The notes beneath the pieces are model-generated. The model ran no database searches. It saw nothing but the letters and a program-made list of their open reading frames with translations, and had not been told where the DNA came from. From Pristiophorus japonicus (lineage: Eukaryota), in the NCBI RefSeq assembly GCF_044704955.1, contig NC_091993.1, positions 117,242,001 through 117,306,000 on the forward strand: a stretch of 64,000 nucleotides of DNA, given 5' to 3'. This document shows positions 2,223-61,036 of this stretch, piece by piece; the stretch's first letter is position 1; the number at the start of each line of letters is the position of its first letter. A program made the translations under genes and the position numbers.

Positions 2223-2540
2223 CTAAAGTCTAGCGTTAGCATAAATTGACATTTCAGAGTTTTCCGGAGTATCAAATGATGGAGGTTCTCTGTTGTTCTT
2301 TGGGGGCTGGCCTTGAACCTTGATAGCACTGTAGGTGACACTGTCCTCATTGTTAACTGAGTGCCTGGCCACCTCACCGCTCCGTGCTGTCGATTTCTTC
2401 TGAAACTGCACTGTTGCATACGTGATTCCATTTTTGTCATTACTCAACTGGGCACTTCCCTCGCTGGGCCTTTCTGCTGAGCTATGTCGAAGGGGCTTTA
2501 CACTTGCATATACAGTGCTCCCTTCCGCTGCTGAAAATTG
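2223..2540 (-). CDS. Gene A exon 7, cytoplasmic tail with TVYASV, ITYATV, VTYSAI and SIYANA
   Basis: Acceptor T-tract plus tag at 2541-2543; in frame with ORF 2223..2447; four Tyr motifs. Confidence 0.9.
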   Translation of the reverse strand, partial: QFSAAEGSTVYASVKPLRHSSAERPSEGSAQLSNDKNGITYATVQFQKKSTARSGEVARHSVNNEDSVTYSAIKVQGQPPKNNREPPSFDTPENSEMSIYANARL

Positions 2541-17500: not shown

Positions 17501-20500
17501 CATTCAGATAATATTCTCCCTTCGTGTTTTTGCCACCAAAGTGGATAATCTCACATTTATCCTCATTATACTGCAACTGCCATGCGATTGCCCACTCACC
17601 TAACCTGTGCAAGTCACCCTGCATCCTTTTAGCGTCTTCCTCACAGCTCACACCACCACCCAGCTTAGTATCATCTGGAAACTTGGAGATATTACACTCA
17701 ATTCCCTCATCTAAATCGTTATGTACATTGTAAAGAGCTGAGGTCCCAGCACTGAGCCTGTAGCACCCCACTAGTCACTGCCTGCCATTCTGAAAAGGAC
17801 CCGTTTATCCCGACCTCTGCTTGCTGTCTACCAACCAGTTCTCTATCCACGCCATACATTACCCCCAATACCATGTGCTTTAATTTTGCACACTAATCTC
17901 CTGTGTGAGACCTTGTCAAAAGCCTTTTGAAAGTTCAAATACACCACATCCACTGGTTCTCCCTTGTCCACGCTACCAGTTACATCCTCAAAAAATTCTA
18001 GAAGTTTTTTCAAGCAGGATTTCCCTTTCATAAATCCATGCTGACTTGGACCGATCCCGTCACTGCGTTCTAAATGTGCTGCTGTTACATCTTTAGTAAT
18101 TGATTCCAACATTTTCCCCACTACCGATGGCAGGCTAACCGATCTATAATTACCTGTTTTCTCGCTCCCTCCCTTCTTAAAAAGTGGTGTTACATTAGCT
18201 GCCCTCCAGTCCATAGGAACTGATCCAGAATTGATAGACTGTTGGAAAATGATCACTAATGAATCTATTATTTCTAGGGGTATTTCCTCAAATACTCTGG
18301 GATGCAGACCATTAGGCCCCGGGGATGTATCATCCTTCAATCCCATCAATTTCCCTAACACAATTTCCCACCGAATAAGGATTTCCTTCAGTTCCTCCTT
18401 CTCACTAGTCCCTCGGTCCCCTAATATTTCCGGAAGGTTATTTGTGTCTTCCTTCGTGAAGACAGAACCAAAGTATTTGTTTAACTGGTCCGCCATTTCT
18501 TTGTTCCCCATTATAAATTCACCTGAATCTGACTGCAAGGGACCTACGTTTGTCTTCACTAATCTTTTTCTCTTCACATATCTATAGAAACTTTTGCAGT
18601 CAGTTTTTATGTTCCCAGCAAGCTTCCTCTCATACTTTATTTTCCCCCTCCGAATTAAACCCTTCACCTCCTCTGCTTTATTATAAAGTTCTCTCAGTCC
18701 TCAGGTTTGCTGCTTTTTCTGGTCAATTTATATGCCTCTTCCTTGGATGTAACACTATCCTTAATTTCCCTTGTTATCCACGGTTGAGCCACCTTTCTAA
18801 TTTTAATTTTACTCCAGACAGGGATGTGCAATTGTTGAAGTTCATCCATGTGATCTTTAAATGTTTGCCATTGCCTATCCACCGTCAACCCTTTAAGTAT
18901 TACTCGCCAATCTATTCTAGCCAATTCACGTCTCATACCATCGAAGTTACCTTTCCTTAAGTTCAGGACCCTGAATTAACTTGTGTCGCTCTCCATCTTG
19001 AAAAAGAATTCTACCATATTATGGTCACTCTTCACCAAGGGGCCTCGCACAACAAGATTGCTAATTAGCCCTTTCTCATTACACATCACCCAGTCTAGGA
19101 TGGCCAGCCTTCTAGTTGGTTACTCGACATATTGGTCTAGAAAACCATCCCTAATACACTCCAGGAAATTCTCCTCCACCGTATTGTTACCATTTTGGTT
19201 AGCCCAATCAATATGTAGATTAAAATCGCCCATGATAACTGCTGTATCTTTATTGCACGCATCCCTAATTTCTTGTTTGATGCTGTTCCCAACCTTATTA
19301 CTACTGTTTGGTGGGCTGTACACAAATCCCACTACCGTTTTCTGCCCTTTGGTAGTCCGTAACTCCACCCGTACCGATTCCACATCATCCAAGCTAATGT
19401 CCTTACTTACTATTGCAATAATTAGTTTGGATAGACATTTATTTTGAAAATTCATTGATCATATTGTTTGTTTAAAGTAACACTTATCAATAATTGACTA
19501 CATTGTTCTTTCGAAGTAACACTTACCAATGCCACTGATTTGTGTCACATAACTGCAGTGCTTCCCTGCTCTGTTGAAGACTGACACATCGACCTTTTCA
19601 CTGGATTTCTCTCCCTGATTATTTGAGGCTGTGCAGTAATATTGATGATGTTGCTGTTTGAAGGATTGACAATGTAGATCCAATTTATTGGTGTCAGAGA
19701 TCTTTGAACCTTTAGTCGGGGTCTGTTCATACCATGTGTACTGAATGGGTAGGGATCCCTGGACAGACTCACAGAAAACTGACACCAAGCCCCCAGAACA
19801 TGAGACATTTGGTGGCGATAAATATCTAACTACAGGAACTGAGACGGTTTCTGTGGGAAAGAAACAAACATTCAGATACTGACTGAACATTTAAAAATCA
19901 AACACTCTCCAATTTTCAGCACTTCTGCATCTCAGCCAGGGCCTGCCATGTTGGAATCTCACCAGCACATCTCCCTCTCCATGTCTCTCCATCCTCCCAG
20001 CAGCCTGAACTACCATGTCTGCCATTATATCAGAACATAGCAGGGCTCCAGATCGGGTCAGCAGCAATGATACTGAGGATGTGTCAATGTGAAAATCAGG
20101 GAGAACAATTTCTCTCAGTAGCAGGTAGCCAGCCTGCATTGCTGTTTCGTTGTTTGACTCTCGAATGTGAACGAGTTGGGGAGAGTCCGAGAAAACTACA
20201 GCAGAATAGGAGGGAAAAAAACTGGCAGATATCTGTTACATGTTTTGTGGGTCTAGATCACTTTTCTACTCATGCGCTCAGATCCATTGAAAAATGAACA
20301 CGTTCTGAACATAAGAAAGGGAGTAGGCCATTCAGCCCCTCGAGCCTGTTCTGCCATTCAATTAGATCTCGACTGATCTATATCTTAACTCCATCGACCC
20401 GTCTTGGTTCTGTAACCCTTAATACCCTTGCTTAAATCTGTCAATCTCAGTTTTGACATTTTCAATTGCTCCCCAGTCTCAACAGCTTTTTGTGGTAGAT

Positions 20501-23500
20501 TTCCATGAGCCTTCATTTGAAAATGTGTTTCCTGACGTTACCCTCAAGATGCGCTTCAGTTGCCTGGACAGATCTGGAGGTGCCCTTCAGTGCTCACCAG
20601 CCTGGGCCTACAGAATGATGGTGGTTTGCTGCGCTCTGCACAACACTGCGCAGCAGCGAGATTGGAGCTGCAGGAGGGACAAGGAGCTGAGCACACGTTG
20701 TCTGCGGACCATTCCGAGACAGAGGAGGAAGATAAGAGGAAAAGGAGCAGGAAGAGGAGGAGGGGATTGCGACCCTAACGAAGCACCAGTCACTCACATT
20801 GTTGCCCGCGATGCCAGCGTTTCCCTTATAGCTGTAAGGTTCAGTCTGTTACCAGCACTGGGCTGATGTAACAACCACATCCAATGCTGCTCTCAATTGC
20901 CTATCTCCTACCCTGCCCCCCCCCCGCACCCACCCCCGCACCAATCCCACTGACACAAAGCAGACCTGCTACCCACCAACCACCCATTGCTCCCCATCAA
21001 TTCATGTCTTCCCATTCATTACCGAGCAACTGAAAAGGCCAGTTGCCACCCAGCAACCAAAAATGGGGAGGGAAAGTGATGCAAAGTAATATATTTTATG
21101 TAATTCTGCCAAAGAACAGAAAATTAACAACATAACAATTACTCAAACACACACGTGGATACACTTCTGCAATTACACAGCTTTACTCTGCCTTTTCCGA
21201 CCGCTCCTATGTGGTGCAACATTTATGACTTCAGCAGAGGTAGAGGTAGGCTGCTCAGATCCCTGCTCTGACTGTTGAGAAGCACTTGGTCGATGACCTC
21301 TGGGTTTGTAGCCCATGAGGGCTCAGCCAAAGTCTGCTCCACCCGCAGTAGATTTGATAAGACAGGGTGAGGGGGTGGTTTATATGTACAATGGGTAGTA
21401 GGTGAATGAGCAGCTGTACTCACCTTTCCTAAACTGGTTTGGTCATTAAAGAGCTTCTTGGTGTTAGCAGCAGTAGCGTTGTGAAAGTGGGGCGCAGGCT
21501 TTGAGCGTCGTGAGTCTATCTTCTACGATTGCTGTCTATGTTCCCAACCTCCCAACTCCTAGAATTCCATCTTTGGATTGGTCCTTTAAATACTTGAGTT
21601 AAGATTACATCATGCATGTCTGCACCACTCCCACTACCGCACATACGATGCAAAACCCGGGAGTAAATTATTATCGGCCGGCTGCGTAAAAATGCCACAG
21701 ACAGACGCACTGTCCAGAACCAGGGGACACAGTCTTAGGATAAGGGGTAGGCCATTTAGGACTGAGATGAGGAGAAACTTCTTCACTCAGAGAGTTGTTA
21801 ACTTGCGGAACTCCCTACCACAGAGAGTTGTTGATGCCAGTTCATTGGATATATTCAAGAGGGAGTTAGATATGGCCCTTACGGCTAAGGGGATCAAGGG
21901 GTATGGAGAGAAAGCAGGAAAGGGTACTGAGGGAATGATCAGCCATGATCTTACTGAATGGTGGTGCAGGCTCGAAGGGCTGAATGGCCTACACTTGCAC
22001 CTATTTTCTATGTTTCTATGTAATTACTTCCGGGTTTCCCAGGCGATATTGGATCCCCTGCACCGAACATGTCTCGAAGTTAATATCCAGACCATTGCAT
22101 CTTATAGTTGATCCATCAGGAGGTTATGCTGGGGAGAAAGATAATGTCTCAGCATTTAATAAAGAGGCTTCTTTTACCATCAAAACAGTGACCAGCTTTT
22201 CAATTTTCTTTTATATTGTTTGTAAAGTTGACCAATTAACTCATTGATAATGTGAGCCATCCATCATATCAGGAAACCTACAAAATTTGTTCAGCTCTGT
22301 GGATTGCAGGTATTTTTTATTCATTTCAAAGAATTTATACCATTAGTAACGACTTGCTGCTCACTGCTTTTGTTATTGTCTGACTATTAGTTTCAGTCTG
22401 AAGGCAAACCTCTGACAGTGGGACATTTAATACAGCTCAGAGACAGGGACATGTGGTGAGCCTCCTAGGTGATGTCTGGCACAACACCCTGTAGTTAAAG
22501 GAATTGTTGGTCCCATAATACTTGAAATTCCTGGTCGGGAAGTTGGGCAGGCCACGGATTGGGAGTGTGCACCATGAGTCGGATTTCCCCACCTCTGCCC
22601 ACTACCTGTGAGACTCTGCACTGCTGCGGAGCCTCGGGATATCGGAGCTCTCATGTTTCCTCCCAGATACAACATTGATCAGACAGTTCAGCAGAGAGTA
22701 ATAAAGCACATCGCTGAGAAACGTACCGTCAGATATTTGTAGCTTTACAGAAAACCTTGTATCAATGCCAGATTGTGAAATACCACAGCTGTACCGTCCT
22801 TCATCTTCTGAGCGAAGGTCCTTCATCGTAACAACAAATATTCCTGCTGTCTGGTTATCTGTGATTGACACTCTTCCTTGCCGTCCATTTGGGTCATTTG
22901 ATTTTACTAAATATGTACAACTGATAGTTGTTCCATCACACCAATATTTCACATGTGACCGGTACCCATGGTCATAGTGACATTCTATGGAGATCGCTCT
23001 TCCCACAATTCCTCTTACTTTATTTTTTGCCCACAATGCACCTGAAACTGAGGAGACAACATTTCAGAAATTGAACAGGAAATAACTGCTCAATACAAAC
23101 AGCTCCATTTTAATAAGTGTTACCACACTGTACAGAGGAATCTCTCCACTACATCAATTAATACAGTTGAGTTCCTTCTAATTTGTGATGAAAGAAAACA
23201 TTAATGCAGTGCCTGATCACATTCTCAGGATGTGCCAAAGCACTTCACAGCCAACGATTAACTTTTGAAGTACAGTCACTGTTGTTAATGTGCCAGATGT
23301 GGTTCAGTGTTCGCACTTTCGGCTCCAAGTCAGTAGATTGTGTATTCAAGTTCCAGCCCAGGGACCCGAGCATAAAATCTCGGCTGACATTCCACTGTTG
23401 GAGGTGCTGTCTTTCAGATGAGATATTATACTGAGACAGGGTCGGTCCTGTCAGGTTGTTGTAAAAGTTCCCATGGTACTATTTTGAAGAAGAGCAGGGG

Positions 23501-25081
23501 AATTCTCCCCAATGTCCTGGCCATCATTTATACCTCTACCAACAATCAGTAAAATACATGATCACGTTGCTGATTGTGGGATCTTGCTGCGCGTAAATTG
23601 GTTGCCATGTTTCCTACATTACAACAGTGAGAGCACATAAAATAAGTAACTGGCTGTAAAGTGCGTTGGGACGTCCTGAGGTCGTGAAAGGCACCACATA
23701 AATGCAAGTCTTTCTTTCTAACCGCAGCAACAACTTGAACTTGATATTCCTCTCGATTCATTCAGCACTATGGGAACAGCCAAAGGAATGTCCATCCTCT
23801 CAACTTTGTTGCTGCAACCTGTACTGCAGCAGGGTTTGGGGAGGGAAGGTGAACATGGTTCATGTAACCAAGGACATGGAAAGGAAGAGGATTGAGGATC
23901 GGCAAGGGAAGACTCAGGAACTTGGAGATAGATCAATGAGCAGGATATTGAGGGTAGTAAACACAGGATTATTCCCAGTGCCACATGGTAGTCAGTGTAA
24001 GAATAGTGAGATAAGGGACGTGATTCTTTGTCAGGAGAGATGGTTCGGAAGAAAAGGGTTCAGATTCCTGGCACATTGGGGCCAGTTCTGGAAAAGGATG
24101 GGGAGGACTTTGGTTGAATAGTTCTTAGACCAATGGCCTTGCTGGGAGAGCAGCTCGTGCTGTGGGGAAAGAGTTTACACTAAAATGGCGGAGGGAGGTT
24201 AAAAATGTGAAGAGGCAGAGAGAAGAGCTGATAGGGAAAAGAAGATAGGAAAGATAAAAGGTGGAATCGGGGAGGTAAAGGAGATCAGATCAGAAAGAGG
24301 AAGGATTGAAAAGAGGAAGATGCCAAACAGACAGAGGCTCGTGTCAGTTGCATATACAGAAGTTCATAAAGTATTCTGTGTAAAATTGGTAAGCTGGAGG
24401 CACAAATCTTCATGGGGAGGTTTGATGTAACAGAATTAACGATCTTGGCTGAGGGTAGGGTGAGACTGGAAGTTCAGCATTGCTGGGAACAAAGATTCGG
24501 CATAAATAGAGGAGAGGTGGCAGTATTAATCTGAACTTCCATTATAGCATAATATAGTTAGGTTAATATGGGGTGGGAGTGAAAAAGCTAAATCTACTTG
24601 GTTCGAGTTAAAGAGTGAGAAGCAAACGGTTACTTACTGGGAGTAATATAGACCCAGCCTCTAGCAGTGAGGAACAGTGTCACTGACAGAGCCTCATAAA
24701 ACAAGACTTCATCAGCTGTACTTTAAATAACAGAAACAATTGCAAGCTCCAGACATGTTCTGTGTGAGGGATTATTACCACTGCAGTCTTCAGTGTATAT
24801 TGGACATAAGACTACATTAAAAAGCACTTTTTACAGATTAAAATGGGTGACCTTTGCATCTTGATTATGTTACTCGTGTCGCTTTAAAAAAAGTAAATGG
24901 GCCCTTTATTATTCATTACAATAAATAATGCAGTTTAGTACATTTTGGTAAATATGAGTATTTCAACATGTCTGCTGCATAAACCGTACACTAGACTCAA
25001 ACTAACACTGATTATCTGAATATCCTGCTCTGAATGTCACTCACCGGGCAGGGAACACATGAGAAGAATCAGAATCCACAT
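2223..25081 (-). CDS. Gene A: complete spliced inhibitory-type CD300/pIgR-like V-C2 receptor, 415 aa. Exons 25081-25045, 23047-22727, 19850-19527, 14855-14750, 11557-11469, 5943-5891, 2540-2223
   Basis: All introns are GT-AG and the phases chain consistently (1,1,1,2,1,0). Exons sum to 1248 nt = 415 aa + stop, with no internal stop. Order is leader, V, C2, stalk, TM, juxtamembrane, Tyr-motif tail. Confidence 0.88.
2675..3091 (-). mobile_element. CR1 3' fragment (shared with gene C 59255-59675)
   Basis: LRGDLIEVFKI...TRGH motif and CR1 3' UTR. Confidence 0.85.
4371..5114. mobile_element. MITE with 17-bp TIR TGGCCCAGAAAT(C/T)CCGG
   Basis: Terminal inverted repeats; related inverted copy at 40335-41079. 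Confidence 0.78.
5363..5630 (-). mobile_element. Short solo LTR (268 bp)
   Basis: TGTAATGTA...TACATTACA termini, 5-bp TSD AAATC; second copy at 36875-38403. Orientation is inferred. Confidence 0.8.
5891..5943 (-). CDS. Gene A exon 6, juxtamembrane cytoplasmic GTNCIICHRGDGTLIHDE
   Basis: Acceptor tttttcag, donor GAG|GTAAGG, phase 1-0; an open paralogous exon of equal length lies at 60984-61036. Confidence 0.82.
6427..6865 (+). repeat. tRNA-headed DeuSINE/SacSINE-like SINE (representative copy)
   Basis: A box GTGGCTCAGTGG, B-box-like GGTTCAAG, Deu-like core, L2-type tail. Other copies at ~11625-12360(-), 13480-13690(-), 15129-15505(+), 15885-16340(-), 23318-23715(+), 41175-41460(+), 58250-58610(-), 61820-62140(+). 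Confidence 0.72.
6975..7177. repeat. 39-bp minisatellite, 5 full units plus a partial unit
   Basis: Unit TCTATTTAAACAGTGCATTACAGCAAACAGTCTACAGAG starting at 6975, 7014, 7053, 7092, 7129. Confidence 0.95.
7655..8534 (+). mobile_element. Solo LTR (~880 bp) in gene A intron 5
   Basis: TGTA...TACA ends, 4-bp TSD GCTT, AATAAA at 8428; the empty site is visible in the gene C paralog (~62912). Confidence 0.82.
10268..10915 (-). mobile_element. CR1 3' fragment
   Basis: VQRRFTRLIP...RMRGDLIETYKI; (ttcttatg)n tail. Confidence 0.88.
11469..11557 (-). CDS. Gene A exon 5, uncharged transmembrane segment SLVYIVLSVLGALIVVFAVCLLFYLMLNKK
   Basis: Polypyrimidine tract plus cag, donor G|GTGAGT; hydrophobic helix followed by a KK stop-transfer; phase 2-1 fits neighbours. 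Confidence 0.88.
14750..14855 (-). CDS. Gene A exon 4, Ser/Thr-rich stalk GPEYSCEVFTTVSPTSTNIISSDKRKPSSRSKAPK
   Basis: Acceptor ttgtttcaatag, donor AG|GTACAA, open in the required phase, and a paralogous exon is open at 42757-42877. Confidence 0.85.
16747..19418 (-). mobile_element. CR1 LINE, 5'-truncated ORF2 (endonuclease end plus RT), frameshifted
   Basis: IMGDFN (APE), SPGPNG, NVTPLFKKG, QHGFMKGKSC, FQKAFDKV, KFPDDTKL, RPHLEYC; (tttctatg)n tail. Confidence 0.93.
19527..19850 (-). CDS. Gene A exon 3, Ig C2-type domain (FcR/FCRL-like)
   Basis: VSVPV..VSVFCESVQGSLPIQYTWY...YYCTASNNQG; acceptor tttcccacag, donor G|GTAAGT; 324 nt, phase 1-1. Confidence 0.9.
20530..21700 (+). mobile_element. 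Harbinger transposase and Myb remnants in gene A intron 2
   Basis: TLKMRFSCLDRSGGALQ...VVCCALHN matches the HARBI1/DDE_Tnp_4 C-terminus; shared with gene B at ~45555-46920. Confidence 0.7.
21710..22021 (+). mobile_element. CR1 3' fragment (shared with gene B ~46933-47243)
   Basis: SRTRGHSLRIRGRPFRTEMRRNFFTQRVV plus tail. Confidence 0.88.
22727..23047 (-). CDS. Gene A exon 2, CD300/pIgR-type Ig V domain
   Basis: IECHY...KYWC-x6-C...GRVSITD...FVVTMKDLRSEDEGRYSCG, including the extra CC' disulfide pair typical of CD300/pIgR/TREM V domains. Acceptor ctcctcag, donor G|GTACGT. Confidence 0.93.
23760..24680 (+). mobile_element. Old CR1 5' fragment: ORF1 esterase (SGNH) region and start of ORF2
   Basis: RVVNTGLFPVP...GFRFLAHWGQFW resembles CR1 ORF1 esterase; highly degraded. 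Confidence 0.6.
25045..25081 (-). CDS. Gene A exon 1, signal peptide MWILILLMCSLP
   Basis: ATG at 25081, hydrophobic run, phase-1 donor G|GTGAGT; joins the V exon to give MWILILLMCSLPVSGALW. Confidence 0.85.
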
Positions 25082-38812: not shown

Positions 38813-38860
38813 TCACTTTACCACATTGGTCAAGCTGTGACGAACCGATTCATTGAGTAA
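38813..38860 (-). CDS. Probable gene B terminal exon LLNESVRHSLTNVVK*
   Basis: Acceptor ttttctttttcag, phase 0 as required, TGA at 38815-38813, AATAAA ~100 nt downstream (38709-38714). An alternative weaker acceptor exists at ~39350. Confidence 0.55.
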   Translation of the reverse strand, partial: LLNESVRHSLTNVVK

Positions 38861-41800
38861 CTGAAAAAGAAAATATTTAAGGCGTCAGATTCATTGATTC
38901 TGAGAATGATGCATTGTTTTACATGTCAGTTCTGAACAGAATTCCAACAAATGGAGGAGAAGCTTGAGATGGACTGGAGCTGTGTTGAGATCACAATCCT
39001 CCCTCCCCTATCACTATTGCACATGTGATGGGAAAAGGTGCTAGTTGGGCCCCTCTTGAAAACATGTAACACCATTTACTCACATGCAACAAGTGTTTCC
39101 CTGCAGCTTAGATGGTGGACAATTCACAGGAGAAAAAGATTGACTTGGCTACTTTGTTAAACACATTTTCGACCGTTTAGTCGAGGTTCCCAGCAACAAT
39201 AGCACTGGGTCTGTGTCTGAGCACCTTGGTGCTCGACCGGACACGTTTAACTGTCTGTGTTCTTGTGTGAAAACCATTGTCTCTGGTGCTCGACAGCAAA
39301 GTGCTTTTTTTTAGCCTTTCCCATTTCCTCCCTTCCGTTTCTTGTAACGACTGTTTTATATCAATGGAATGAAAGTCGGAGGGTTCTATAACGGGCGGGT
39401 TACATAGGAACAAAGCAACAGGAGCAGCCCATTCAACCCTTTGAGCCTGTTCCACCGTATAACTGGATCACAGCTGATCAGTGGCACAACTCCATTTACC
39501 CGCCTTTGATCCATACCCTTTGATGATCTTACCCAACAAATATCTAGTGATCTCAGCTGTGAAAATTTCAATTGGCCCTGCATCCACAGCCAGTTCCAGG
39601 TTCCCACAACCCTTTGTGGGAAAAAGTGCTTCCTAATTCTACTCCTAAATGGTTTAGCTCTAATTTTTAGATTATGCCCCCTTGTGGGGATTCCCCCACC
39701 ACGCAAGTAATTTCTCCCTATCTAGTCTATCGAATCCCTTAATAATTTTAAATTCTTTGATTATTTCAACCCTCAACCTTCTAAGCTCTAGGGAATACAA
39801 CCAAGTTTATGTAATCTCTCCTCATAATTGAACACTTTAAGCCCGAGTATCAGTCTGGTGAATTTGCACTGCAGTCCCTCCAAGGCCAGTATTTCTTTCC
39901 TGAGGTTTGGTGCCCGAAACTGAACACAGAACTCCAGGTGGGGTCTGACCAAGGCTCTGTACAACTGAAACAATTTTGAATTCCAATCCCCATAAAATGA
40001 AGGCCAACTTCCCATTAGCCTTTTTGATTACTTTTTGCACATGTGCCCTAGCTTTCAGTGACTTGTGTACATCGACATCTAAATCTCTTTACTTCTCCAG
40101 ATCCTCTAGTGTATCATCCTGGAGAAAATATTCCGATTTTTCTTCCTCTGATCCAAAGGGGATGATCTCACGCTTCCCCACATTGAACTCCACCTGCCAT
40201 AGCTTTGCCCACTCACTTAGTCTGTCTATGTCCTCAGGTAACTTCCTGCTCCCATCCGCACAATTCACGCTCTAGAACGGGAGGGGGATCCGCTCCTCAG
40301 AATTACCGCCTATGCTGTAATATATTGAAGATATTGGCCCTGAAATTCCGATGTCCCGGGTCTGTACGAAGTTTATACGGACCCGGGAAGGCTTCGAAAA
40401 AGCAGTTTTTCAGTGTGCAATGCGCATGCGCAGAAAACCGGCTTTTCCGATCTGTCATTTTTCTGGTTTGACAGATCCATTGCATATCGGGAGCGAGGAC
40501 ACTGGCAGGGCAAAATTTCCGATATTTACGAATATCTTGCCCTGCAAATGTTCTTTAAAATCTTGCGCCTGAAAAAGCAGGCGTATAGCCTACTTTTACA
40601 GGCGCAAGTGTTTAAAAATACACACAAACATTTTAAAATAACGTTATAAAAACACATTTTGTTGTTAAAAACCCTCCCCACTACAGTAAGTTTATTTTAA
40701 GGTTTAATTAAAAAAACTTTTTAAAAAGTCGGGAAAATAATTTGTTTTGTAACAACTTTAATTTAAATGAATGTGAAATATGTAGTGTATTTTCTATTTT
40801 TTATTGTGTTTTGGGGGGGTTTCGCATTCATAGTAATAGGAGTTCCAGACTTATGGAACTCCTATTACTATGAATGAGAATCTACACTACACCTTATTGG
40901 CTGCTGTCTCCAGATCCTGGCCTGCGCACGTCCCCACGTGCATGCGCTGCGCGTGCAGTCACCAGATGCCTCAGGCTCGGAAGTTCCAACGGGCGCAGCA
41001 GCAACAGGTAACTGCGCATATTTTTTCTCTTCTTCTGTCGTTTGCCCGCGGGAAAAGCTCAAACGGAATTTCAGGGCCAATAAGTTACCCCAGTGACACC
41101 AATTAGAGATAAAGCGCTTGCCATGTTGAGTTCTGTAAACTGGATTGAGCCTGTTTGGCCAAGGACTACAACACATAATCTAGGCTGGCACTGCAGTGTC
41201 GTGCAGAGGTATCGCTCTATTGTCGGATGATGCATCAACTGCAGGCCTCGTCTGCTTGTACAGGTAAAGCTAAAAGATCCTACGGCAGCATTTGAAGAAG
41301 AGCAGAGGTGTTCGCCAAAACAAACTATCTGGTCATTTATCCCTTTTGCTGTTTGGGGGTCTTTGCTGTGTGCAAATGTTCTGCCCCTCTTGACTATGTA
41401 ACAAAAATAATTACTTGGATGTAAAGAGCTTGGGACATCTTGAAGACATGAGAGGCTCTGTGTAAATATTATTACAAGAACCACAGTGATAAAGTGAAAC
41501 TTTCATTTATTGGTGGAAGTTATCCTGGACTAATACTGCTCATCACTTCTGGATGGATGCAGCCACAACAAGGGCTCAAGAAGCCCGAAGACATCCAGAA
41601 CCAGCAATCCACTGGATTTTGCCTACATTACAACAGGAACACTTCAAAACTAACTCATATTGGCTGCAAAATGCTTTGTTTCGTCCTGAGGATATGAAAG
41701 GGTTTATATCAATGCAAGTTTTTCTTTATAGTATCTGCGATCAATATTTTTGAAAGAATTGATGGAGTGATTCATTTAAAGTCCGTAAACCCTACCTTCG

Positions 41801-44800
41801 ATTTTCTCGTACACCTTGTGACTGAAATAGTACAAATCACCAGGAGAGCAAAGAGCAGCCAGCGTCCCACATTCCATATAATGTAACTGAGCAAAAGGGA
41901 ACAAATACAAAATCATTCGAAGCAAACGAGTCTGCTTTGTGTTTGAAACATTTATCATCTGTTTACACTGTAATCTTAGTATAGTGCATCAATGTAAAGC
42001 TGCAGAGCCAAGGGACGTTAACTGGGAAAGTAAACTAGTGTTTACGTTATGGAGGAAAGTCAACCTTGTGATCATTAGATAAAGATCAAATGAAGCAAAC
42101 TTCATTAACATGTGCACAATGTATAGCTGCAATGGTAAGCCACAATTTTATAATTGAGGACTTTATAAAAGTGACTGGCCAGCTGAGGGAAGCATCGCTG
42201 CCTGGGGCCATGTAGCAATGGTGAGATATCTCCTCAGGGAGTAAGGATAGTCAGAGTAGCATCACCCTACACTGCTCTTATGCACCTTCTAACAGGCAAT
42301 TGCTGAATAGCTGGAATCAGATATCCTTCCTACCCTCTCAGTTTGGGAACTGTGTCTCACGTCGGGGAACTGAGAAGGGGAAAAAGACAACTTTTTTGTC
42401 AGTACCAGAACAGATAAGGGGCAAGGAAAACTGACATTGCGGTTCTTTGGTAAGTGCAACTCCATGAGATTATGTTAACGGTGAAGTAATCAAGTTGAAT
42501 AATGAAAAAAGCCCCATCTAAGTAGCAGCAAAATGGAAGTGCTTACTTGTTATTCTTATTTTCCAGCAACAAAGACAGCACCTTGGTTAGGAAGCTAACA
42601 CAACATGATGTCAACTCAGTCACCATTCCCATTCTGAGGAGCTACATTCCAAAATAATACATGATTATCAACCCTTATGACAAAACTATTAAAGAATATT
42701 TAATCTCTCACATGGAAGCAATGCTAATCAGAACACCAGCGATGAGAACATTGTACCTTTTCGTCAATTTGGATCCTGAAGAATGGTTTCGATTATCAGT
42801 GGAAATTATATTTGTATTTGTGGAATGTGCAGTTGTTGGTGATACTATTGAAACACCTTCACAAGAATATTCAGGTCCTTTTGAAACAAGGGAACAAAAT
42901 TCAGATTCATCTAATTTTCACTAGTAGTCAACCAAGAGAGCACGATTGTCAAACGGAACCTCAATACTTGGCTGCTAGAAATTAAATTATCCAAATCTAT
43001 GCTGTGTAATTGCCCTTCTCTGGCAGCAAGGAGAGATGTTGCTGTCACCTGACCATGGCCCATATTACTGATAATATACTATTGGGACAGTTAAAGGGCT
43101 CAGGTTGGTGCGATTACAAACCAGGTATCCCCGCGCAAGTGTAAAGGAAAGTTCTAGCCAGAGAGTCGGTCTCTGCCACCACCAGAAAATGTATTCTGTG
43201 GTCCGAGCAAGTGCAATTGTGTCCTGGAAAGTGTCCTCAGTGGAAAAGGAATGTCAGCTGTGCATTGAGTGCAGAGGGAAATATTAGACCAGGAATTACT
43301 GCTGTCAATATTAGTGGACAAGCAGATACATTTCAGATGGCATTTCATTGTCAAAAGATTGTTTCTGTTAAATTAATCAGCAGATGAATGTCACACAAAC
43401 ACATTGAACAGACGCCTGCTAATATTGGCCATGGTCATTTCCTGCCTCTTGGGCTGGGTTTTCTGAGCTTGCGGTAGTAACAGCAAACGACACACACCAT
43501 GCAGGGGATCTCGCATATCAGGGACTGGCTCACAATCACAATAGATCATCGTCCGCCATTTCTGCCACCTCCAGCATGATCCCACCACCAAACGCATCTT
43601 CCCCTCCCCTCCCAACATTCCGAAGCTGGCGCACCCTCCGCGACACCCTTGTCCGCTCCACAAACACCCCCAGCACCCCCTCCCCTTCCCACGACACCTT
43701 CCTGTGCAAGCACAAGAGATGCAACACCTGCCCTTTTACCTCCTCCCTTCCCACTTTCCAAGGCCCAAAATACTCCTTCCAGGTGAATCAGCGGGTTACT
43801 TGTACTTATTTCAATTTAGTATCTTGCATTCGTTGATCACGATGTGGTCTCCGCTACATTGGGGAGACCTAACGCAGATTGGGTGACTGCTTTGCAAAAC
43901 ATCTCCATTCAGTCCGTAAGTGTGACCCTACGCTTCCTGTCGCCTGTCATTTCAACTCTCCGCTCCACTCCACTCCAACTGGGATCTCTCAGTCCTCGGT
44001 CTCCTAGACTGTTCCAATGGAGCTCAACGCAAGCTCGAGGTACAGCTTCTCATCTTTTGTATAGGCACTTTACAGTCATCAGGACTCAACATCAAGTTTA
44101 ATAATTTCAGATCATAATCTCTGACCATATATTTTCCCTTTTTTTAAAAAGCATTCCTTTCTCTCTCCTTCCCATGGCAGCTGGTGATGATTCTGCCATT
44201 CATATCCCATTTAGTTGTTGCTTAACTTGTTCCATTACCATCTCAGTTTTGCCCATCATCCCTTTAGTCTCTTTAATCTCTCCTGCCTTCCACCCTATCA
44301 CAGACCTTCCCTTTTGTTCTTTCCTCCCCTCCCCCTTTCACTGCCACTGCACGTCTTTAAGAATTTGTTACATCTAAAACTTTTCCAGGTCTGATGAAGG
44401 GTCACAGACCCGAAAAGTGAACTCTGTTTCTCTCCACAGATGCTGCTTGACCTACTGAGATTTCCAGTATTTTCTGTTCATATTTCTGGCTCACAAACGG
44501 TTTGGATCGACATTCATTGAAAAATTAATGTTGTTTGTTCAAAGTAACACATACCAATGCCACTGATTTGTGTCACATAACTGCAGTGCTTCCCTGCTCT
44601 GTTGAAGACTGTCACATCGACCGTTTCACTGGATTTCTCTCCCTGATTATTTGAGGCTGTGCAGTAATATTGATGATGTTGCTGTTTGAAGGATTGACAA
44701 TGTAGATCCAGTTTATTGGTGTCGGAGATCTTTGAATCTTTAATCGGGGTCTGTTCATACCATGTGTACTGAATGGGAAGGGATCCCTGGACAGACTCAC

Positions 44801-47800
44801 AGGATACTGACACTGAGCCCCCAAAACATGAGACATTTGGTGGCGATAAATATCTAAGTACAGGAACTGAGACGGATTCTGTGGGAAAGAAACAAACATT
44901 CAGATACTGACTGAACATTTAAAAATCAAACACTCTCCAATTTTCAGCACTTCTGCATCTCAGCCAGGGCCTGCCATGTTGGAATCTCACCAGCACATCT
45001 CCCTCTCCATGTCTCTCCATCCTCCCAGCAGCCTGAACTACCATGTCTGCCATTATATCAGAAGATAGCAGGGCTCCAGATCGGGACAGCAACAATGATA
45101 CCGAGGATGTGTCAATGTGAAAATCAGAGCTAACAATTTCTCTCAGTAGCAGGTAGCCAGCCTCCAATGTTGTTTCATTGTTTGACTCTCGAATGTGAAC
45201 AAGTTGGAGAGAGTCCAAGAAAACTGAAGCAGAATATGAAGGCAAAAATCTGGCAGATATCTGTTACATGTTTTGTGGGTCTAGTTCACTTTTCTACTCA
45301 CACGCACAGATCGATTGAAAAATGAGCAGGAAGTCCTGAACATAGGAAAGGGAATAGGCCATTCAGCCCGTCGAGCCTGTTCTGCCATTCAATTAGATCG
45401 CGGATGATCAATATCTGAAGTACCCACCTTGGTTCCATAACCCTTAATACCCTTGTCTAAATCTGTCAATCTCAGTTTTGACATTTTCAATTGCTCCCCA
45501 GCCTCAACAGCTTTTTGTGGTAGAGACTACCCTTTGTATGAACAAATGTTTCCTGACGTTACCCTCAAGATGCGCTTCAGTTGCCTGGACAGATCCGGAG
45601 GCGCCCTTCAGTGCTCACCAGCCTGGGCCTACAGAATGATGGTGGTTTGCTGCGCTCTGCACAACACTGCGCAGCAGCGAGATTGGAGCTGCAGGAGGAA
45701 CAAGGAGCTGAGCACACGTTGTCTGCGGACCATTCCGGGACAGAGGAGGAAGATAAGAAGTGGAGCAGGAGGAGGAAGAGGAGGAGGAGATTGCGACCCT
45801 AACGCAGCAGCTGTCCCGGCCATCACTCTCTGTTCTTGCTCACTTCTGCAGTGTGAGTCTCCAGGTGAAAACACAACTATCTGTCTAATTGGACCCACTG
45901 AAGTGTGAGTATCTGCGTTGGTGCCTGGTAAGCATGAGTCCTGTGATGGTGCACCCTCAGAAAGAATCACCTCCTCTGAGGATTCGTCGTCTGCGAGGTG
46001 CACTGACTGCTGCTGCACGTGTGAAGGACCTGGCAGGGAGAAAAAATATGAATTAGTACTGGCAAGTTAAGAATGTTGCAACCTATCATTATGAAAATGA
46101 TTATATCTGACTCTGCTGAAACCAGGTCAACATGATTGAGTGTTGCATGACATGTGGGTTCATGATATTTAATTCTGTCACCAGGTAGCTGAGAGGTCCC
46201 CATCTCCAATGGCCAGGGACACCGGGTTGCCACTGATCTTCAGCGCTTCCACCTCTGCATTTGTTAGCTATGAGATCTGTGGAGGACCACCTGTGGTTCT
46301 CTCTCGCTCCCGAGTGTTCTGCACTTTCTTCTCCTGCAACGGGGGAAAGAACAGACCCATGAGTGACTGTAGTGGCATGTGTTCACCCGATGGATGTCGT
46401 GCATATGGTGAGGGTGACTATCAGTGAGAGGCATGAAACTGCATAAGAATCAGGATGGGAGGGAGTGGTGGATGGAGAGATGGGGATGAGAGGAATTGCA
46501 TAGAAAGAGAAGTTTGGGTGTGTATGCAAGGTAAGTGGGTATGAGGAGCGATATGATGCAGTAGATTTGATAAGACAGGGTGAGGGGGTGGTTTATATGT
46601 ACAATGGGTAGTCGGTGAATGAGCAGCTGTACTCACCTTTCCTAACCTGGTTAGGTCATTAAAGAGCTTCTTGGTGTTAGCAGCAGTAGCGTTGTGAAAG
46701 TGGGGCGCAGGCTTTGAGCGTCCTGAGTTTATCTTCTACGATTGCTGTCTATGTTCCCAACCTCCCAACTCCTAGAATTCCATCTTTGGATTGGTTCTTT
46801 AAATACTTGAGTTAAGATTACATCATGCATGTCTGCACCACTCCCACTACCGCACATACGATGCAAAACCCGGGAGTAAATTATTATCGGCCGGCTGTGT
46901 TAAAATGCATTAAAATGCCACAGACAGACGCACTGTCCAGAACCAGGGGACACAGTCTTAAGATAAGGGATAGGCCATTTAGGACTGAGATGAGGAGAAA
47001 CTTCTTCACTCAGAGAGTTGTTAACCTGCGGAACTCCCTACCACAGAGAGTTGTTGATGCCAGTTCATTGGATATATTCAAGAGGGAGTTAGATATGGCC
47101 CTTACAGCTAAAGGGATCAAGGGGTATGGAGAGAAAGCAGGAAAGGGTATTGAGGGAATGATCAGCCATGATCTTATTGAATGGTGGTGCAGGCTCGAAG
47201 GGCTGAATGGCCTACTCCTGCACCTATTTTCTATGTTTCTATGTAATTACTTCTGGGTTTCCCAGGCGATATCGGATCCCCTGCACCGAATACGTCTCGA
47301 AGTTAATATCCAGACCATTGCATCTTATAGTTGATCCATCAGGAGGTTATGCTGGGGAGGAAGATAATGTCTCAACATTTAATAAAGAGGCTTCTTTTAC
47401 CATCAAAACAGTGACCAGCTTTTCAATTTTCTTTTATATTGTTTGTAAAGTTGACCAATTATCTCATTGATGATGTGAGCCATCCATCATATCAGGAAAC
47501 CAGAAAATTAGTTAAGCTCTGTAGATTATAGGTATTTTTTATTAATTTCAAGGAATTTATTCCATTAGTAATGATTTGCTGCTCACTACTTTTGTTATTG
47601 TCTGACTATAAGTTTCATCGTGGGTCCCCTCGACCTGTGCGAGAACACCACCTCAGGTTGTGGCTATAAATAGAGCTTGCCCTGGAACATTGTGGTCGAA
47701 GGTGCAGGTAATGAGGGTATGGGGCCCAGAAGAGTCAAGGGCCCATGGGCAGCACGGGCCAGCCCACACTGTGTGCGCACTAGGTCTGTGCAGCAGAGCA

Positions 47801-48650
47801 GGTCTCCAGTCGTCCTCATTCAACACTTGCCACTTGATAAAGGCCTAGCTCTGGCAAGCCCGTCTGGTGGTTGATGTGCAACGGTCACTACACGTTAAAA
47901 AAATTCACGCACAGACATCTTCCACCCCCTCAATTGGAGTTCAGGACTGGAACATTGGGTCTTTCATTGAATCATCTGTGATGATGATTAGTTTCAGTCT
48001 GAAGGCAAACCTCTGACAGTGGGACATTTAATACAGCTCAGAGACAGGGACATGTGGTGTGCCTCCAGGTGATGTCTGGCACAACACTCTGTAGTTAAAG
48101 GAATTGTTGGTCCCATAATAATTGAAATTCCTGGTCGGGAAGTTGGGCAGGCCACGGATTGGGAGTGTGCACCGTGAGTCGGATTTCCCCACCTCTGCCC
48201 ACTACCTGTGAGACTCTGCACTGCTGCGGAGCCTCGGGATATCGGAGCTCTCATGTTTCCTCCCAGATACAACATTGATCAGACAGTTCAGTAGAGAGTA
48301 ATAAAGCAAATCGCTGAGAAATGTACCGTGAGATATTTGTAGCTCCATATTGAAATGTGTATCGAAGCTGCCTGATTCTGTAATACCACAACTGTACCAT
48401 CCTGCATCTGCTGAGCGAAGGTCCTTCATCGTAACAACAAATATTCCTGCTATCTGGTTATTTGTGATTGACACTCTTCCTCCCCATCCATGTTTCTCAT
48501 TTGTTGTTACTACAACTGAGCATTGGTGAGTCCAGCCCTGACACCAATATTTCACATGTGACCGGTACCTTTGGTCATAGTGACATTCTATGGTGATCGC
48601 TCTTCCCACAATTCCTCTTAGTCGTTTATTTGCCCACAATGCACCTGAAA
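38813..48650 (-). CDS. Gene B: activating-type paralog (V-C2-stalk-TM(Arg)-short tail). Exons 48650-48327, 44878-44555, 42877-42757, 41886-41796, probable last exon 38860-38813; leader exon not found
   Basis: All identified exons are open, with GT-AG sites and consistent phases. It would be 314 aa with an A-type leader. It may be a 5'-truncated pseudogene. Confidence 0.72.
39403..40265 (-). mobile_element. CR1 3' fragment
   Basis: LYRALVRPHLEFCVQF...TRGHNLKI. Confidence 0.85.
40335..41079. mobile_element. MITE of the same family as 4371-5114, opposite orientation
   Basis: Perfect TIR TGGCCCTGAAATTCCG; internal similarity to 4371-5114. Confidence 0.78.
41796..41886 (-). CDS. Gene B transmembrane exon SYIIWNVGRWLLFALLVICTISVTRCTRKSK with intramembrane Arg
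   Basis: Strong acceptor ttgttcccttttgctcag, donor AAG|GTAGGG; the phase-2 start matches the stalk; Arg codon at 41862-41864. Confidence 0.85.
42757..42877 (-). CDS. Gene B stalk exon GPEYSCEGVSIVSPTTAHSTNTNIISTDNRNHSSGSKLTK
   Basis: Paralog of 14750-14855 with an in-frame 15-nt insertion; acceptor aag, donor AG|GTACAA. Confidence 0.82.
43541..44485 (+). mobile_element. Penelope-like element fragment (GIY-YIG endonuclease and 3' end)
   Basis: CKHKRCNTC..FTC...NLVSCI..C.L.YIGET.RRL....H...PVACHFN pattern with stops; a reverse fragment lies at ~57830-58230. Confidence 0.8.
44555..44878 (-). CDS. Gene B C2-domain exon
   Basis: 9 aa differences from gene A exon 3; acceptor tttcccacag, donor G|GTATGT. 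Confidence 0.9.
45555..46920 (+). mobile_element. Harbinger remnants in gene B intron (paralog of 20530-21700)
   Basis: Same transposase C-terminal fragment; the middle portion differs from A. Confidence 0.7.
47613..47987. mobile_element. Gene B-specific ~370-bp retroposon-like insertion
   Basis: Absent at A ~22390; flanked by a duplicated t(a/t)agtttca; family not identified with certainty. Confidence 0.55.
48327..48650 (-). CDS. Gene B V-domain exon (CD300/pIgR-type)
   Basis: IECHY..KYWCQGWTHQC..GRVSIT..DAGWYSCG; same splice positions as gene A. Confidence 0.92.
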
Positions 48651-48905
48651 CTGAGGAGACAATATTTCAGAAATTGAACAGGAAATAACTGCTTAATACA
48701 AAGAGATACATTTTAATAAGAGGAATCTCTCCACTACATCTATTGATACAGGTGAATTCCTTCTAGTTTGTGATGAAAGAAAACATTAATATATTGCCTG
48801 ACCATACCTTCAGGATCTGCCAAAGCGCTTCACAGCCAATGATTTACTTTTGAAGCACAGTCACTGTTGTTATTGAGCCAGCTGTGGCTCAGTGTTAGCA
48901 TTCTC

Positions 48906-50336
48906 TAGGTGGGAGGGGGTAGGAGTGAGCAGGTGCTGCTGATTACTGCAGGATTTGGTGTGAGTTTGTAAAACGTTGGTGGTGTTTTTGTTTCAAATTT
49001 TAGGGCCTGTTTGTCCCATATACAGCAGCCAGATGGCTGCTTAGAGGCCTGGAATGCTGGCCCCTCTGAAGACAATGTTCCCAGGATGAATTTAATCAGG
49101 GAAGAAAATGTTTTGGGAAGTGAGAATAAAAGGCCCAAATATTTGGGCCACGAGCTCAGGCGGTTTGGAAAACGTGGCATCACTTCAGGGTCTGCAGCTG
49201 CTTGTGTGGCTGTCCGGGTGTGCTTCCCCACGAGTGTGAGCACCTGCTCCTTCATGTCAGTGATGTCATTGATGACTGGTGGCCCCCCACCTATTCACCT
49301 CTGCATGGACCTCATCATTGATAGCTTCTTCTGTAAAAGGTAACAGGACGACATGGCATGAGATCACTGCGTGATATCATTGCTAGATACTGCCACAGAG
49401 ACTGATACAACACATAACCGACAGAAGTAATCATCATTATTATGAAAATTATCCTTCTTTACCTAAAGATGTACACCATGAATGCAGGCATTGAGTACAA
49501 CATTCCCAGTAAAAGTGGAAGACCTCACATCTGATTATAGTCATTCATGACTCTTACAAATCAAATTATATAAATATATAAATACAGGTAAATAAATTTA
49601 ATACTCTTGCAGATCCAACAAGGTTGTTCCATCGCTTGCGGCATTGGTTGCCCTCACGCACCTCGTTGGTCACCGACGAGACCACCTCTGCTATCTCGGC
49701 CCATATCTTCTGGTAGGCCTTTGGATTGGGCTTCCCATACCCTCCCTGGGTCAAATCACCCCAGCGTAACTCAACCTTCTGCAAGAGGGAGGCATTTGCC
49801 TCATCCGAGAACCTCCTCTCTTGTGCCCTCCAATGTGCTCCTCTCCCAGCTCATCAGCGTCAGTCTCCACAGCGTGCTGTCTCGCCTCCTCCTCTCCCTT
49901 CATTATCGGCACCAAATTGGGGCAAATATCTGGCTGGTAACAGCTAATTTTTTTTTTCCCAATTTGCTATAAAGCTCTAAACTCTCCCTCCTTCCTCCCA
50001 AAGCAGCCACATCACACCCACACACGCCTTCACTCACTCTCAGCTCCCTCTCTCTCTGTCTCCTCTTATGCGCATGTCATGATGACCTCCTGAATCACGG
50101 GAATCGAGCGTTGCTATGCCGTTGCTAAGGACGGCGACATTTTACGGCAGAAGGTCAAAGAGATTTAATGTTACCGCCTATTTCATATCGCTCGCAGTAA
50201 CGCCCAATTTGAAAAATGGAGACTAGAGGCTTTGAGAATGAGCGACAAGCCGACGATCTGAAAACGCATTTTTACAGCCCAGGCCGGAATAACGCCCTTT
50301 TTTGGGCAATCTGCTCAAAAGTGTAAAATCTAGCGC
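48906..50336 (-). mobile_element. Truncated inverted Harbinger-type copy related to 50600-56251
   Basis: ORF 49566..49784 IWAEIAEVVSSVTNEVREGNQCRKRWNNL (Myb/SANT); TIR-like end at 50336; the other end is abruptly truncated. Confidence 0.75.
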
Positions 50337-58805: not shown

Positions 58806-61036
58806 CTAACATCTAGCGTTAGCATAAATTGCCATTTCAGAGTCCTGTGGAGTATCAGGTGATGGAGGGTCTCTGTTGTTCGTTGGGGGATAGGTTTGAA
58901 CCTTGATAGCACTGTAGGTGACACTGTCCTTGTTGTTAACTGAGTGCCTGGCCACCTCACCGCTCCGTGCTGTTGATTGCTTTTGAAACTCCACTCTTGC
59001 ATACGTGATTCCATTTTCATCGTTACTCAATTGGGCAGTTCCCTCGTTGGGCATTTCTGCTGAGCTATGTCGAAGGGGCTTTAGACTTGCATATACAGTG
59101 CTCCCTTCCGCTGCTGAAAATTGCTAAAATAAAAAAAAATACAAGATCCAATTTATCTCTGATTAACTTGAATGGTGGTTTGTGCTGTTATGAGGTAAAA
59201 TGTATTTCTAGATTATTACAAATCAGTTTACAAAGTATTACAAAGTACGACAAATTATTTACAGCACAGAAACAGGCCATTCGGCCCAATGGGTCCATGT
59301 CGGTGTTTATGCTCCACACGAGCCTCCTTCCACCCCTCTTCATCTAACCCCATCAACATACCCTCTATTCCTTTCTCCCCATGTGCTTATTTAGCTTCCT
59401 CTTGAATGCATTTATGCTATTTGCCTCAACTACTCCCTGTGGTAGCGAGTTCCACATTCTGACCACTCTCTGGGTCAAGAAGTTCCTCCTGAATTCCCGA
59501 TTGGATTTATTACTGTCTTATATGTATGACCCCTAGTTCTGGTCTCGCTCGCAAGTGGAAACATCTTCTCTATGTCTACCCTATCCAACCCTTCTATAAT
59601 CTTGAAGACCTCTGTCAGGTCACCCCTCAGTTTTATCTTTTCAGAAAAGAACCCCAGCCTGTTCAATCTTTCCATAAATGTTTAATTTTCCAAGAGAGTA
59701 TAATAACACATTACATATCATAGAAACATAGAAACATAGAAAATAGGTGCAGGAGTTGGCCATTCGGACCTTCGAGCCTGCACCACCATTCAATATGATT
59801 ATGGCTGATCATGCAACTTCAGTACCCCATTCCTGCTTTCTCTCCATACCCCTTGATCCCTTTGGCCGGAAAGGGCCACATCTAACTCCCTTTTGAATAT
59901 ATCTAATGAACTGGCCTCAACAACTTTTTGTAGTAGAGAATTCCACAGGTTCACAATTCTCTGAGTGAAGACGTTTCTCCTCATCTCAGTCCTAAATGGC
60001 TTATCCCTTATCCTTAGACTGTGACCCCGGTTCTGGACTTCCCCAACATCGGGAACATTCTTCCTGCATCTAACCTGTTGAATCCCGTCAGAATTTTATA
60101 TGTTTCTATGAGATCCCCTCTCATGCTTCTAAATTCCAGTGAATATAAGCCTAGTCGATCCAATCTTTCATATATCAGTCCTGCCATCCTGGGAATCTGT
60201 CTGGTGAACCTTCGCTGCACTCCCTCAAAAGCAAGAATGTCCTTCCTCAGATTAGGAGACCAAAACTATACACAATATTCAAGGTGTGGCCTCACCAAGG
60301 CCCTGTACAACTGCAGTAAGACCTCCTTGCTCCTATTCTCAAATCCTCTTGCTATGAAGGCCTTTTGCCTTCTTCACCGCCTGCTGTACGTGCATGCCAA
60401 CTTTCAATGACTGATATACCATGACACCCAGGTCTCGTTGCACCTCCCCTTTTCCTAATCTGTCACCATTCAGATAATATTCATCATCTCATGGGTCAAG
60501 TAGCAGTGATCCTAAATAAATATTAACTACATCTATATTTACAACAACAACAACTTGCTTTCATAGAGTGCCTTCAATGTAGTAAAATGTCCCATGGAGC
60601 GTTACAGGAGCATAATCAGTTAAAAATTGAAACCGAGCCAAATAAGGAGACATCAGGGCAGTTGGCCAAAAACTTCTAAGGTTTTAAGGCAAAATATTTT
60701 AAGGAGCGTCGTAAAGAAGGAGATAGCAGCGGAGAGGTTTAAGAACGAAAATTCCAGAGCTTAGGGCCTAGATGTCTGAAGTCAAGTCCGCCAATGGTGG
60801 TGTTAAGGAAGTGGAGGATGCATAAGGCCGGAGTGGGAGGAACGCAGAGTTCTTGGAAAGTTGTCGGGCTGGAGGAGGTTAAAAGGTTAAAATAATGCAT
60901 GTGCACATCCTGGCCCAAAATCCTAATTTTCAGTTTCATAATTTCCAAACATTATTCAGAGGATTCATACTTAATACCCTTACCTGATTATCATGAAGAG
61001 TTTTGTCTCCTCTATTACATATTATGCAGTTTGTAT
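58806..61036 (-). CDS. Gene C (partial): inhibitory paralog of gene A. Exons 61036-60984 (DTNCIICNRGDKTLHDNQ) and 59123-58806 (tail with TVYASL, ITYARV, VTYSAI, AIYANA); upstream exons lie beyond the window
   Basis: Same exon lengths (53 and 318 nt), splice sites and flanking intron repeats as gene A exons 6-7; both exons are open. Confidence 0.85.
59718..60482 (-). mobile_element. CR1 3' fragment specific to gene C intron
   Basis: CR1 motifs; absent at the paralogous site in A (~3135). Confidence 0.88.

Follow-up and report, generated by a model that had tools for sequence, protein, structure and literature searches.

Patches of divergence on the predicted binding face of a V domain shared by tandem MDIR genes of the sawshark Pristiophorus japonicus

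The MDIRs are the cartilaginous-fish relatives of the CD300, pIgR, and TREM receptors and have been described as multigenic activating and inhibitory receptors (PMC3031540). In the clearnose skate (Rostroraja eglanteria), MDIR2 consists of a leader, a V domain, a C2 domain, a stalk, a transmembrane (TM) segment, and a tyrosine tail. MDIR5 carries an arginine TM segment and a short tail, and both MDIR3 and MDIR5 contain several V-C2 modules. Mammalian CD300 receptors have a similar V fold, in which two further cysteines close off the C-C' loop, and likewise occur in inhibitory and charged-TM activating forms. To our knowledge, CD300s have no C2 domain. Tyrosine motifs inhibit, and a TM arginine couples a receptor to an ITAM adaptor.

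Gene conversion between the paired ectodomains of CD300A and CD300C keeps their binding domain alike, according to a study that also sets out the charged-TM principle of activating receptors (PMC12447643). Activating and inhibitory CEACAM genes of Xenopus have binding domains matched by recent conversion together with diversification (PMC5112662). Exon 5 of human red/green opsin is far more diverged than the flanking introns, which was read as selection against conversion (PMC3924837), and a comparable divergence peak under gene conversion was described for bovine CEACAM32 (PMC7042247). In the literature searched, which took in few subscription papers, we came upon neither an analysis of selection or conversion in MDIRs nor an MDIR ligand, pathogen or other.

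The window analyzed here is a stretch of 64,000 nucleotides of the P. japonicus genome (NC_091993.1, positions 117,242,001 to 117,306,000). From the window onward, nine genes (A to I) occupy 464 kb and, judged by sequence, A and B are two of these nine tandem shark MDIR genes, which combine a CD300/pIgR-like V domain with a C2 domain. The V exons of A and B were both assigned to the Pfam V-set, pIgR and CD300 chains led a PDB sequence search with V, and all 25 matches of the first protein search came from cartilaginous fish. When a little-skate relative served as the query, the 108 matches included skate MDIR2, MDIR3, and MDIR5. The V domain of B was 57% identical to that of MDIR2 (E 2e-42) and its C2 domain was 62% identical (E 1e-40). 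As in the MDIR family, the cluster has homologous V domains, a C2 domain after V, and multiple genes with tyrosine-tailed and charged-TM forms. Membership in CD300, in contrast, fails on the C2 exon, which was present in 9/9 sawshark genes. Gene A has the layout of skate MDIR2, and B resembles MDIR5 in its arginine TM segment and short tail; unlike MDIR3 and MDIR5, the sawshark genes have one V-C2 module each, and B differs from the skate MDIRs in having no leader.

Within the sawshark genome, at least 17 V matches (9 of them close), 11 C2 matches (9 close), and 4 tail exons were detected. Tyrosine-motif tails were present in A, C, H, and I, while the TM segment of B, D, E, F, and G contains an arginine and their last exon encodes 15 residues. 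Genes A, D, E, F, G, and H have open frames of 311 to 419 amino acids with a leader and represent complete type I membrane proteins; C has a stop in C2, and I is broken in V. By their exons, A and B likely have opposite signaling ends, a feature that the initial annotation of this locus had missed along with the leaderless state of B. The arginine forms would signal via an ITAM adaptor, and the tyrosine-tailed forms would inhibit.

All exons described here lie on the minus strand of the window. Gene A comprises a leader exon (25045..25081), a V exon of 315 nt that is the outlier of the cluster (22727..23041), a C2 exon (19527..19850), a stalk exon (14750..14855), an uncharged TM exon (11469..11557), a first cytoplasmic exon (5891..5943), and a last exon (2223..2540) with four ITIM/ITSM-like tyrosine motifs; its frame of 413 amino acids is open. 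The CD300/pIgR-like V-set exon of gene B (48327..48644; PF07686, E 6.5e-12) has 318 nt, 105 codons, and phase 1-1. It had been placed at 48327..48650, and the last 6 of those bases are intron. It is followed by a C2 exon (44555..44878), a stalk exon (42757..42877) that is 99% identical to that of gene D, a TM exon with an arginine (41796..41886), of activating type like that of skate MDIR5, and a short last exon without a tyrosine motif (38813..38860). The frame of B is open from V to the stop. Gene C lies upstream of B, with its last, tyrosine-motif exon at 58806..59123 and its first cytoplasmic exon at 60984..61036; its C2 exon carries a TGA.

A leader query that detected 8 copies in the 464 kb found none between the C tail and the B V exon, and a scan of 48645-58800 yielded no signal-like leader candidate for B. 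What remains of intron 1 of B (48645..49172) is homologous to intron 1 of D up to 49172, with no leader exon before the tail of gene C. Within 48645-58800 (minus strand), the end of B intron 1 is thus joined to DNA that resembles the sequence lying downstream of a tyrosine-tailed gene. B has probably ceased to be a gene in its own right. As the V and C2 exons have phase 1-1, B could splice in frame from the C leader while skipping the stop-bearing C2 exon of C, and the product of such splicing could resemble skate MDIR3 in having a V-V-C2 arrangement. A contig of run X1 joins 48327 to 44878 across the intron; its letters are of the F/G/H type, so that it appears that this type is spliced, and they are uninformative on A or B. 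The V exon and leader of A were uncovered in X1, which speaks neither for nor against their expression.

Self-comparison of the window revealed a duplicated block (19.5-23.3 kb versus 44.5-48.9 kb) containing two V and two C2 exons, all with AG/GT ends. Of the 104 codons that align between the V exons of A and B, 34 differed, in addition to a gap of one codon (67% identity), and 54/312 nt differed. The C2 exons (44878-44555 versus 19850-19527) differed at only 9/107 codons and 14/321 nt. The excess in V was highly significant by Fisher's test (amino acids, p=1.3e-5; nucleotides, p=1.3e-7), in line with the initial annotation, which had called V far more diverged than C2. V nucleotide divergence also exceeded that of the introns (p=1e-13). 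The intron after V had been described as nearly identical between the two genes. This holds for its first 337 nt, with 7 differences, but not for the alignable V-C2 intron in full (110/2321, 4.7%) or for the intron upstream of V (24/215, 11%).

Nucleotide differences between A and B were unevenly spread over V, at 5/24 in codons 1-8, 1/42 in 9-22, 2/36 in 23-34, 25/63 in 35-55, 6/93 in 56-86, and 15/54 in 87-105. As the framework (9/171) is at the intron background, the excess divergence sits in three patches, whose borders were picked after the data were seen. The largest runs from the C-C' loop to the C'' region (B codons 35-55, 48478..48540), where 14/21 amino acids differ; the second covers the F-G loop and G strand (B codons 87-105, 48328..48384) and includes the one-codon gap; and the third is N-terminal (amino acids 5-8 within 1-8). 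The earlier description, in which changes cluster in C-C'-C'' and F-G and the framework is kept, was thus accurate for these two regions, including both quoted C-C'-C'' peptides, but missed the N-terminal patch. The clustering itself was significant in a permutation test (14 of 34 changes inside one 21-amino-acid window, p=0.009) but not in a runs test (p=0.07).

The AlphaFold model of V (pLDDT 94.4, from a 37-sequence alignment) had mouse CD300lf as its best match among the top 1000 of Foldseek (Z 18.9, rmsd 1.3, 102 aligned residues). Mapped by strand and loop on this predicted model, 24/51 positions of the C-C'-C''-F-G half differed between A and B, compared with 11/54 elsewhere (p=0.007, gap counted), so that at the level of predicted strands the changes concentrate in one half of the fold. 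The variable V sites of the sawshark were predicted by how much each site varies between paralogs in 17 other species (Spearman 0.54); of the 25 sites that vary most there, 20 are also sites of difference between A and B (p=4e-8). Cysteines C34 and C41 were kept in all copies and in at least 90% of the 37 aligned proteins, as an extra C-C' disulfide. In CD300lf, a pocket flanked by the CC' and CDR3 loops, with the Cys36-Cys44 bond as its floor, is the binding site of both phosphocholine and the norovirus capsid (PMC6166816). The C34-C41 pair is likely the counterpart of Cys36-Cys44. By analogy with this model, the C-C'-C''-F-G face would bind ligand as in CD300lf, and the MDIR V domain likely works like that of CD300.

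Sequence exchange among the copies was evident across the cluster. The V domain of A was 67-72% identical to those of B to F, while that of B was 83-91% identical to those of C to F. B is a mosaic of an F-type V and its D-like stalk. H (G000:C17:117568052-117605288) is chimeric: its V exon is identical over all 315 nt to that of F/G, and its TM segment and tail are of the C type; its tail has a phenylalanine in place of the second tyrosine. Divergence between F and H stays mostly at 0-0.6% as far as about 1.5 kb beyond V and is mostly 2-3% farther on. In an informative-site compatibility test on V plus flanks (37 sites), neighbors were more compatible than in shuffled data (p=0.0016), while V alone (18 sites) gave no significant result (p=0.43). 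As in paired receptors, one and the same V exon sequence is found in F/G, with their arginine TM, and in H, with its tyrosine tail. A and B, whose V domains are only 67% identical, are therefore not a pair with matched binding domains. Nor do A and B have a single age, as their stalk exons are about 80% alike, their upstream introns 89%, and their V-C2 stretches 95%. The F-G patch shared by A and D was considered as proof of conversion and dropped, since a V tree with A, D, and the rest as its lineages explains the sharing without any conversion.

No donor paralog for the A patch was found among the at least 17 V matches in the sawshark genome. In amino acids 35-55, the best paralog of A matched at 8/21 positions and a catshark domain at 13/21, and 51 of 209 foreign domains surpassed the best paralog of A, compared with 0/209 in the framework. 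At the 14 differing sites, however, 162 of the 209 foreign domains leaned to the B state, 32 to the A state, and 15 were tied, so the A patch is a minority type and not simply ancestral. The four closest carriers of an A-type patch have tyrosine tails. In a tree of the patch, A grouped with galeomorph domains (SH-aLRT 84 and 93), while the rest of V placed all sawshark copies together (support 99); these trees used 61 of 215 domains, leaving out batoids except R. eglanteria and three orectolobiform species. However, neither of two AU tests gave a rejection (p=0.38, for one sawshark clade in the patch, and p=0.29), and tests of A-patch sharing gave p=0.059, 0.029, and 0.67. In these comparisons, made on proteins only, the A patch is closer to galeomorph-shark domains than to its own paralogs, which may reflect ancient ancestry or convergence.

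Tentatively, A may carry an ancient 21-residue C-C'-C'' type common to receptors of catsharks, the whale shark, and the basking shark, which would predate the squalomorph/galeomorph split and whose flanking strands and introns were rewritten by conversion; we think this doubtful. The split is well over 200 million years old. If true, the patch would be a trans-order specificity cassette below the scale of an exon and would hint that one inhibitory MDIR has a ligand that is conserved.

The initial annotation had proposed diversifying selection on the binding face. For A and B alone, pN in V was 0.189 and pS was 0.121 (dN/dS 1.65), a difference that was not significant (Fisher p=0.13; range 0.05-0.5 over kappa and path choices), and this pairwise ratio was discarded as proof of selection. 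Wider sets of copies were more informative. In a tree-free count, the V exons of B, C, E, and F, a subset also chosen after the data were seen, differed by 28.5 non-synonymous changes as against 1.5 synonymous ones (p 0.006-0.019). The full set of six distinct V exons, from one assembly, gave 69.5 versus 11.5 (p 0.005-0.04; 0.03-0.12 with the most-synonymous paths), while C2 gave 20 versus 14. A loop-versus-framework split of this count was drawn post hoc and is not used as proof.

Codon models, fitted to the six V exons with purpose-written code, yielded an M0 omega of 2.11 and a difference between M1a and M2a of 2dL 39, with sites 7, 25, 39, 40, and 96 assigned to the selected class. This signal persisted in 4/4 V subsets and was absent in 2/2 C2 sets; C2 had an omega of 0.45-0.58 and no site class. 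However, as 13 of 18 neutral mosaic simulations also passed the M1a/M2a test at 5%, neither this comparison nor M8a/M8 (2dL 39) was taken at face value as proof of selection, although the largest simulated 2dL was 23.4 and none reached 39. Standard site tests thus overstate selection on mosaic gene copies. A dual-rate model allowing for site-rate variation gave V an omega of 2.55 (2dL 6.76, p about 0.009), a value reached by 0/18 neutral simulations, and a model of four segments with their own trees and branch lengths gave an omega of 2 (p=0.03). The segment signal came from amino acids 1-34 (2dL 9.3), while omega was about 1.5 and not significantly raised in amino acids 35-55 (2dL 0.19) and 87-105 (2dL 0.47). 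Positive selection on V across the six-gene set, with an omega of about 2-2.5 and p values of 0.01-0.03, is therefore moderately supported, but not specifically in the two patches that the annotation had named. The proposal is thus partly supported, by the omega of the V exons as a set and by the bias of the changes toward one half of the predicted fold, and not by A versus B taken by themselves.

Synonymous divergence between the V exons of A and B also exceeded intron divergence (p=0.009). Among codons with a conserved amino acid, 4 of 13 inside the patches carried a synonymous difference, compared with 1 of 54 in the rest of V (p=0.004); the same test was stronger for A-C, A-E, and A-F and not significant for A-D. 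Values of pS were 0.23 in amino acids 35-55, 0.34 in 87-105, and 0.024 in the framework, with pN at 0.45 and 0.26 in the two patches. As synonymous differences are raised together with replacements, the patches look older and not merely fast. However, all four synonymous patch differences adjoin a replacement or lie near the gap, and multi-base events could therefore explain them without greater age. A V-exon dS raised as much as dN had been named as a sign of an older conversion tract rather than selection; this was found in half measure, with synonymous changes concentrated in the patches and patch omega not significantly above 1. As patch dS is raised while omega over V exceeds 1, selection and conversion, which had been offered as alternatives, are not alternatives here: conversion would level all but the patches, and the patchwork import of the A patch from a paralog lacks a donor among the copies found.

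We favor, with a probability of about 0.6, the reading that selection preserves the differences in the binding-face patches. Gene conversion and unequal crossover would even out the introns, the V framework, and C2 among the copies, and selection against conversion would leave peaks of divergence at C-C'-C'' and F-G, below the scale of the exon. The difference between A and B in V is confined mainly to short patches because selection likely spares these from homogenization. Two layers would be superimposed, an older difference between A and the rest at C-C'-C'' and F-G that outlasts homogenization and a recent amino acid diversification among B to H at the N-terminus, the B-C loop, and positions 39, 40, and 96. 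The pressure on the face would presumably be microbial.

The main rival is recent positive selection with multi-base changes, in which one fairly recent duplication was followed by point and multi-base mutations fixed by selection in the loops, with synonymous changes carried along in the same events; neither an older tract nor protection from conversion would then be required. The excess of pN over pS in amino acids 35-55, the replacements adjoining the synonymous patch differences, an M2a signal above all 18 neutral simulations, and the AU test that retains one sawshark clade for the patch all fit it. We nevertheless regard it as unlikely, since pS exceeds pN in amino acids 87-105, the A-B segments have no common age, and the A patch is nearer to the domains of other sharks than to its own paralogs. 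Neutral patchwork or relaxed constraint is less likely still. Under it, the loops would be tolerant, or A would have received tracts from a divergent, since-lost paralog, with no selection for difference. It draws on a patch omega not significantly above 1, on site tests misled by mosaicism, and on loops that vary in every species sampled. It is at odds with an omega above 1 over V in the mosaic-aware tests, with differences among B, C, E, and F that are almost solely replacements, with two tracts that both map to one predicted face, the intervening strands being at background (4-6/93 nt), and with the absence of the A patch from all eight V loci of the distant group (identity 29-46%). That the divergence stems from B decaying as a pseudogene, as its missing leader exon might suggest, is very improbable and largely refuted by the branch pattern, as the V domain of B is 89-91% identical to those of C and F with an open frame, the long branch belongs to A with its intact 413-amino-acid gene, and the site signal remains without B (A, C, D, E, and F; 2dL 43). 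Shark antibody genes undergo AID-like mutation with tandem substitutions, but a similar germline mutator targeted to the V exon is scarcely credible here: 11/26 variable V sites among B, C, E, and F have a variable neighbor, yet so do 11/40 in the flanking introns, WRC/GYW motifs show no enrichment (5/44 hotspot versus 16/99 other C/G sites, p=0.6), and synonymous sites among these four genes are almost untouched.

The favored reading, selection holding patches apart amid homogenization, places a known evolutionary mechanism in a known family as a new instance, and the mechanism would not surprise a specialist. The pattern of CD300A and CD300C fits F/G and H, while A and B do the reverse and retain their difference at the binding face. 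The V matching of F, G, and H is also like that of the Xenopus CEACAMs, which belong to a different IgSF family from the MDIRs. In opsin and CEACAM32, the divergence peak spans a whole exon, whereas in the sawshark it is divided into two or three patches, each 8-21 codons long and separated by leveled strands. Outside the peak, opsin and CEACAM32 paralogs are closer to each other than to orthologs; for the sawshark, the ortholog comparison is one of proteins only. Taken together, the results suggest that the paired-receptor pattern of mammals and frogs, with conversion, chimeras, pseudogenes, and diversifying faces, also occurs in sharks. Residues 7, 25, 39, 40, and 96 and the patches at 35-55 and 87-105 are candidates for closer examination, for which the identical V of activating F/G and inhibitory H and the divergent V of A provide natural controls.

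Several further features of the cluster were observed. A public 1283-amino-acid model from P. japonicus (P0001) is identical to D, E, and F/G/H throughout their V domains and runs genes D to H together as one protein. As D to H each have their own leader, TM exon, and stop, P0001 is likely a mis-annotation, and other long shark models named pIgR-like or FcRL5 may share this fusion fault. A gap of 200 N (G000:C17:117360736-117360935) lies between the V exon of C and a putative leader 46 kb away, and the head-to-head layout of A-C versus D-I hinges on the join across it. The TM exon of C (L034), H, and I has a proline and an arginine where that of A has leucines. Beside the cluster, at G000:C17:116.99-117.20 Mb, the eight distant CD300/pIgR-like V exons (L010-L017) form a second subfamily. 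Between A and B (26764-31475), 247-nt direct repeats that are 94% alike flank broken gag/pol-like frames, an insertion that we presume to be LTR-retroelement-like.

The start of the V-C2 intron was the most conserved non-coding stretch, the first 337 nt in B (47990..48326, minus strand) being 96-98% identical in the 7 other copies having it. It was considered as a dispersed repeat and rejected, as only the 8 cluster copies match in the sawshark genome (G000). In 8/8 copies with an intact V, the V frame continues for about 41 codons into the intron (48202-48326), giving open frames of 153-154 amino acids, and an X1 contig of depth 3 covers this region. By its frame, a secreted V-only form produced by read-on into the intron is possible.
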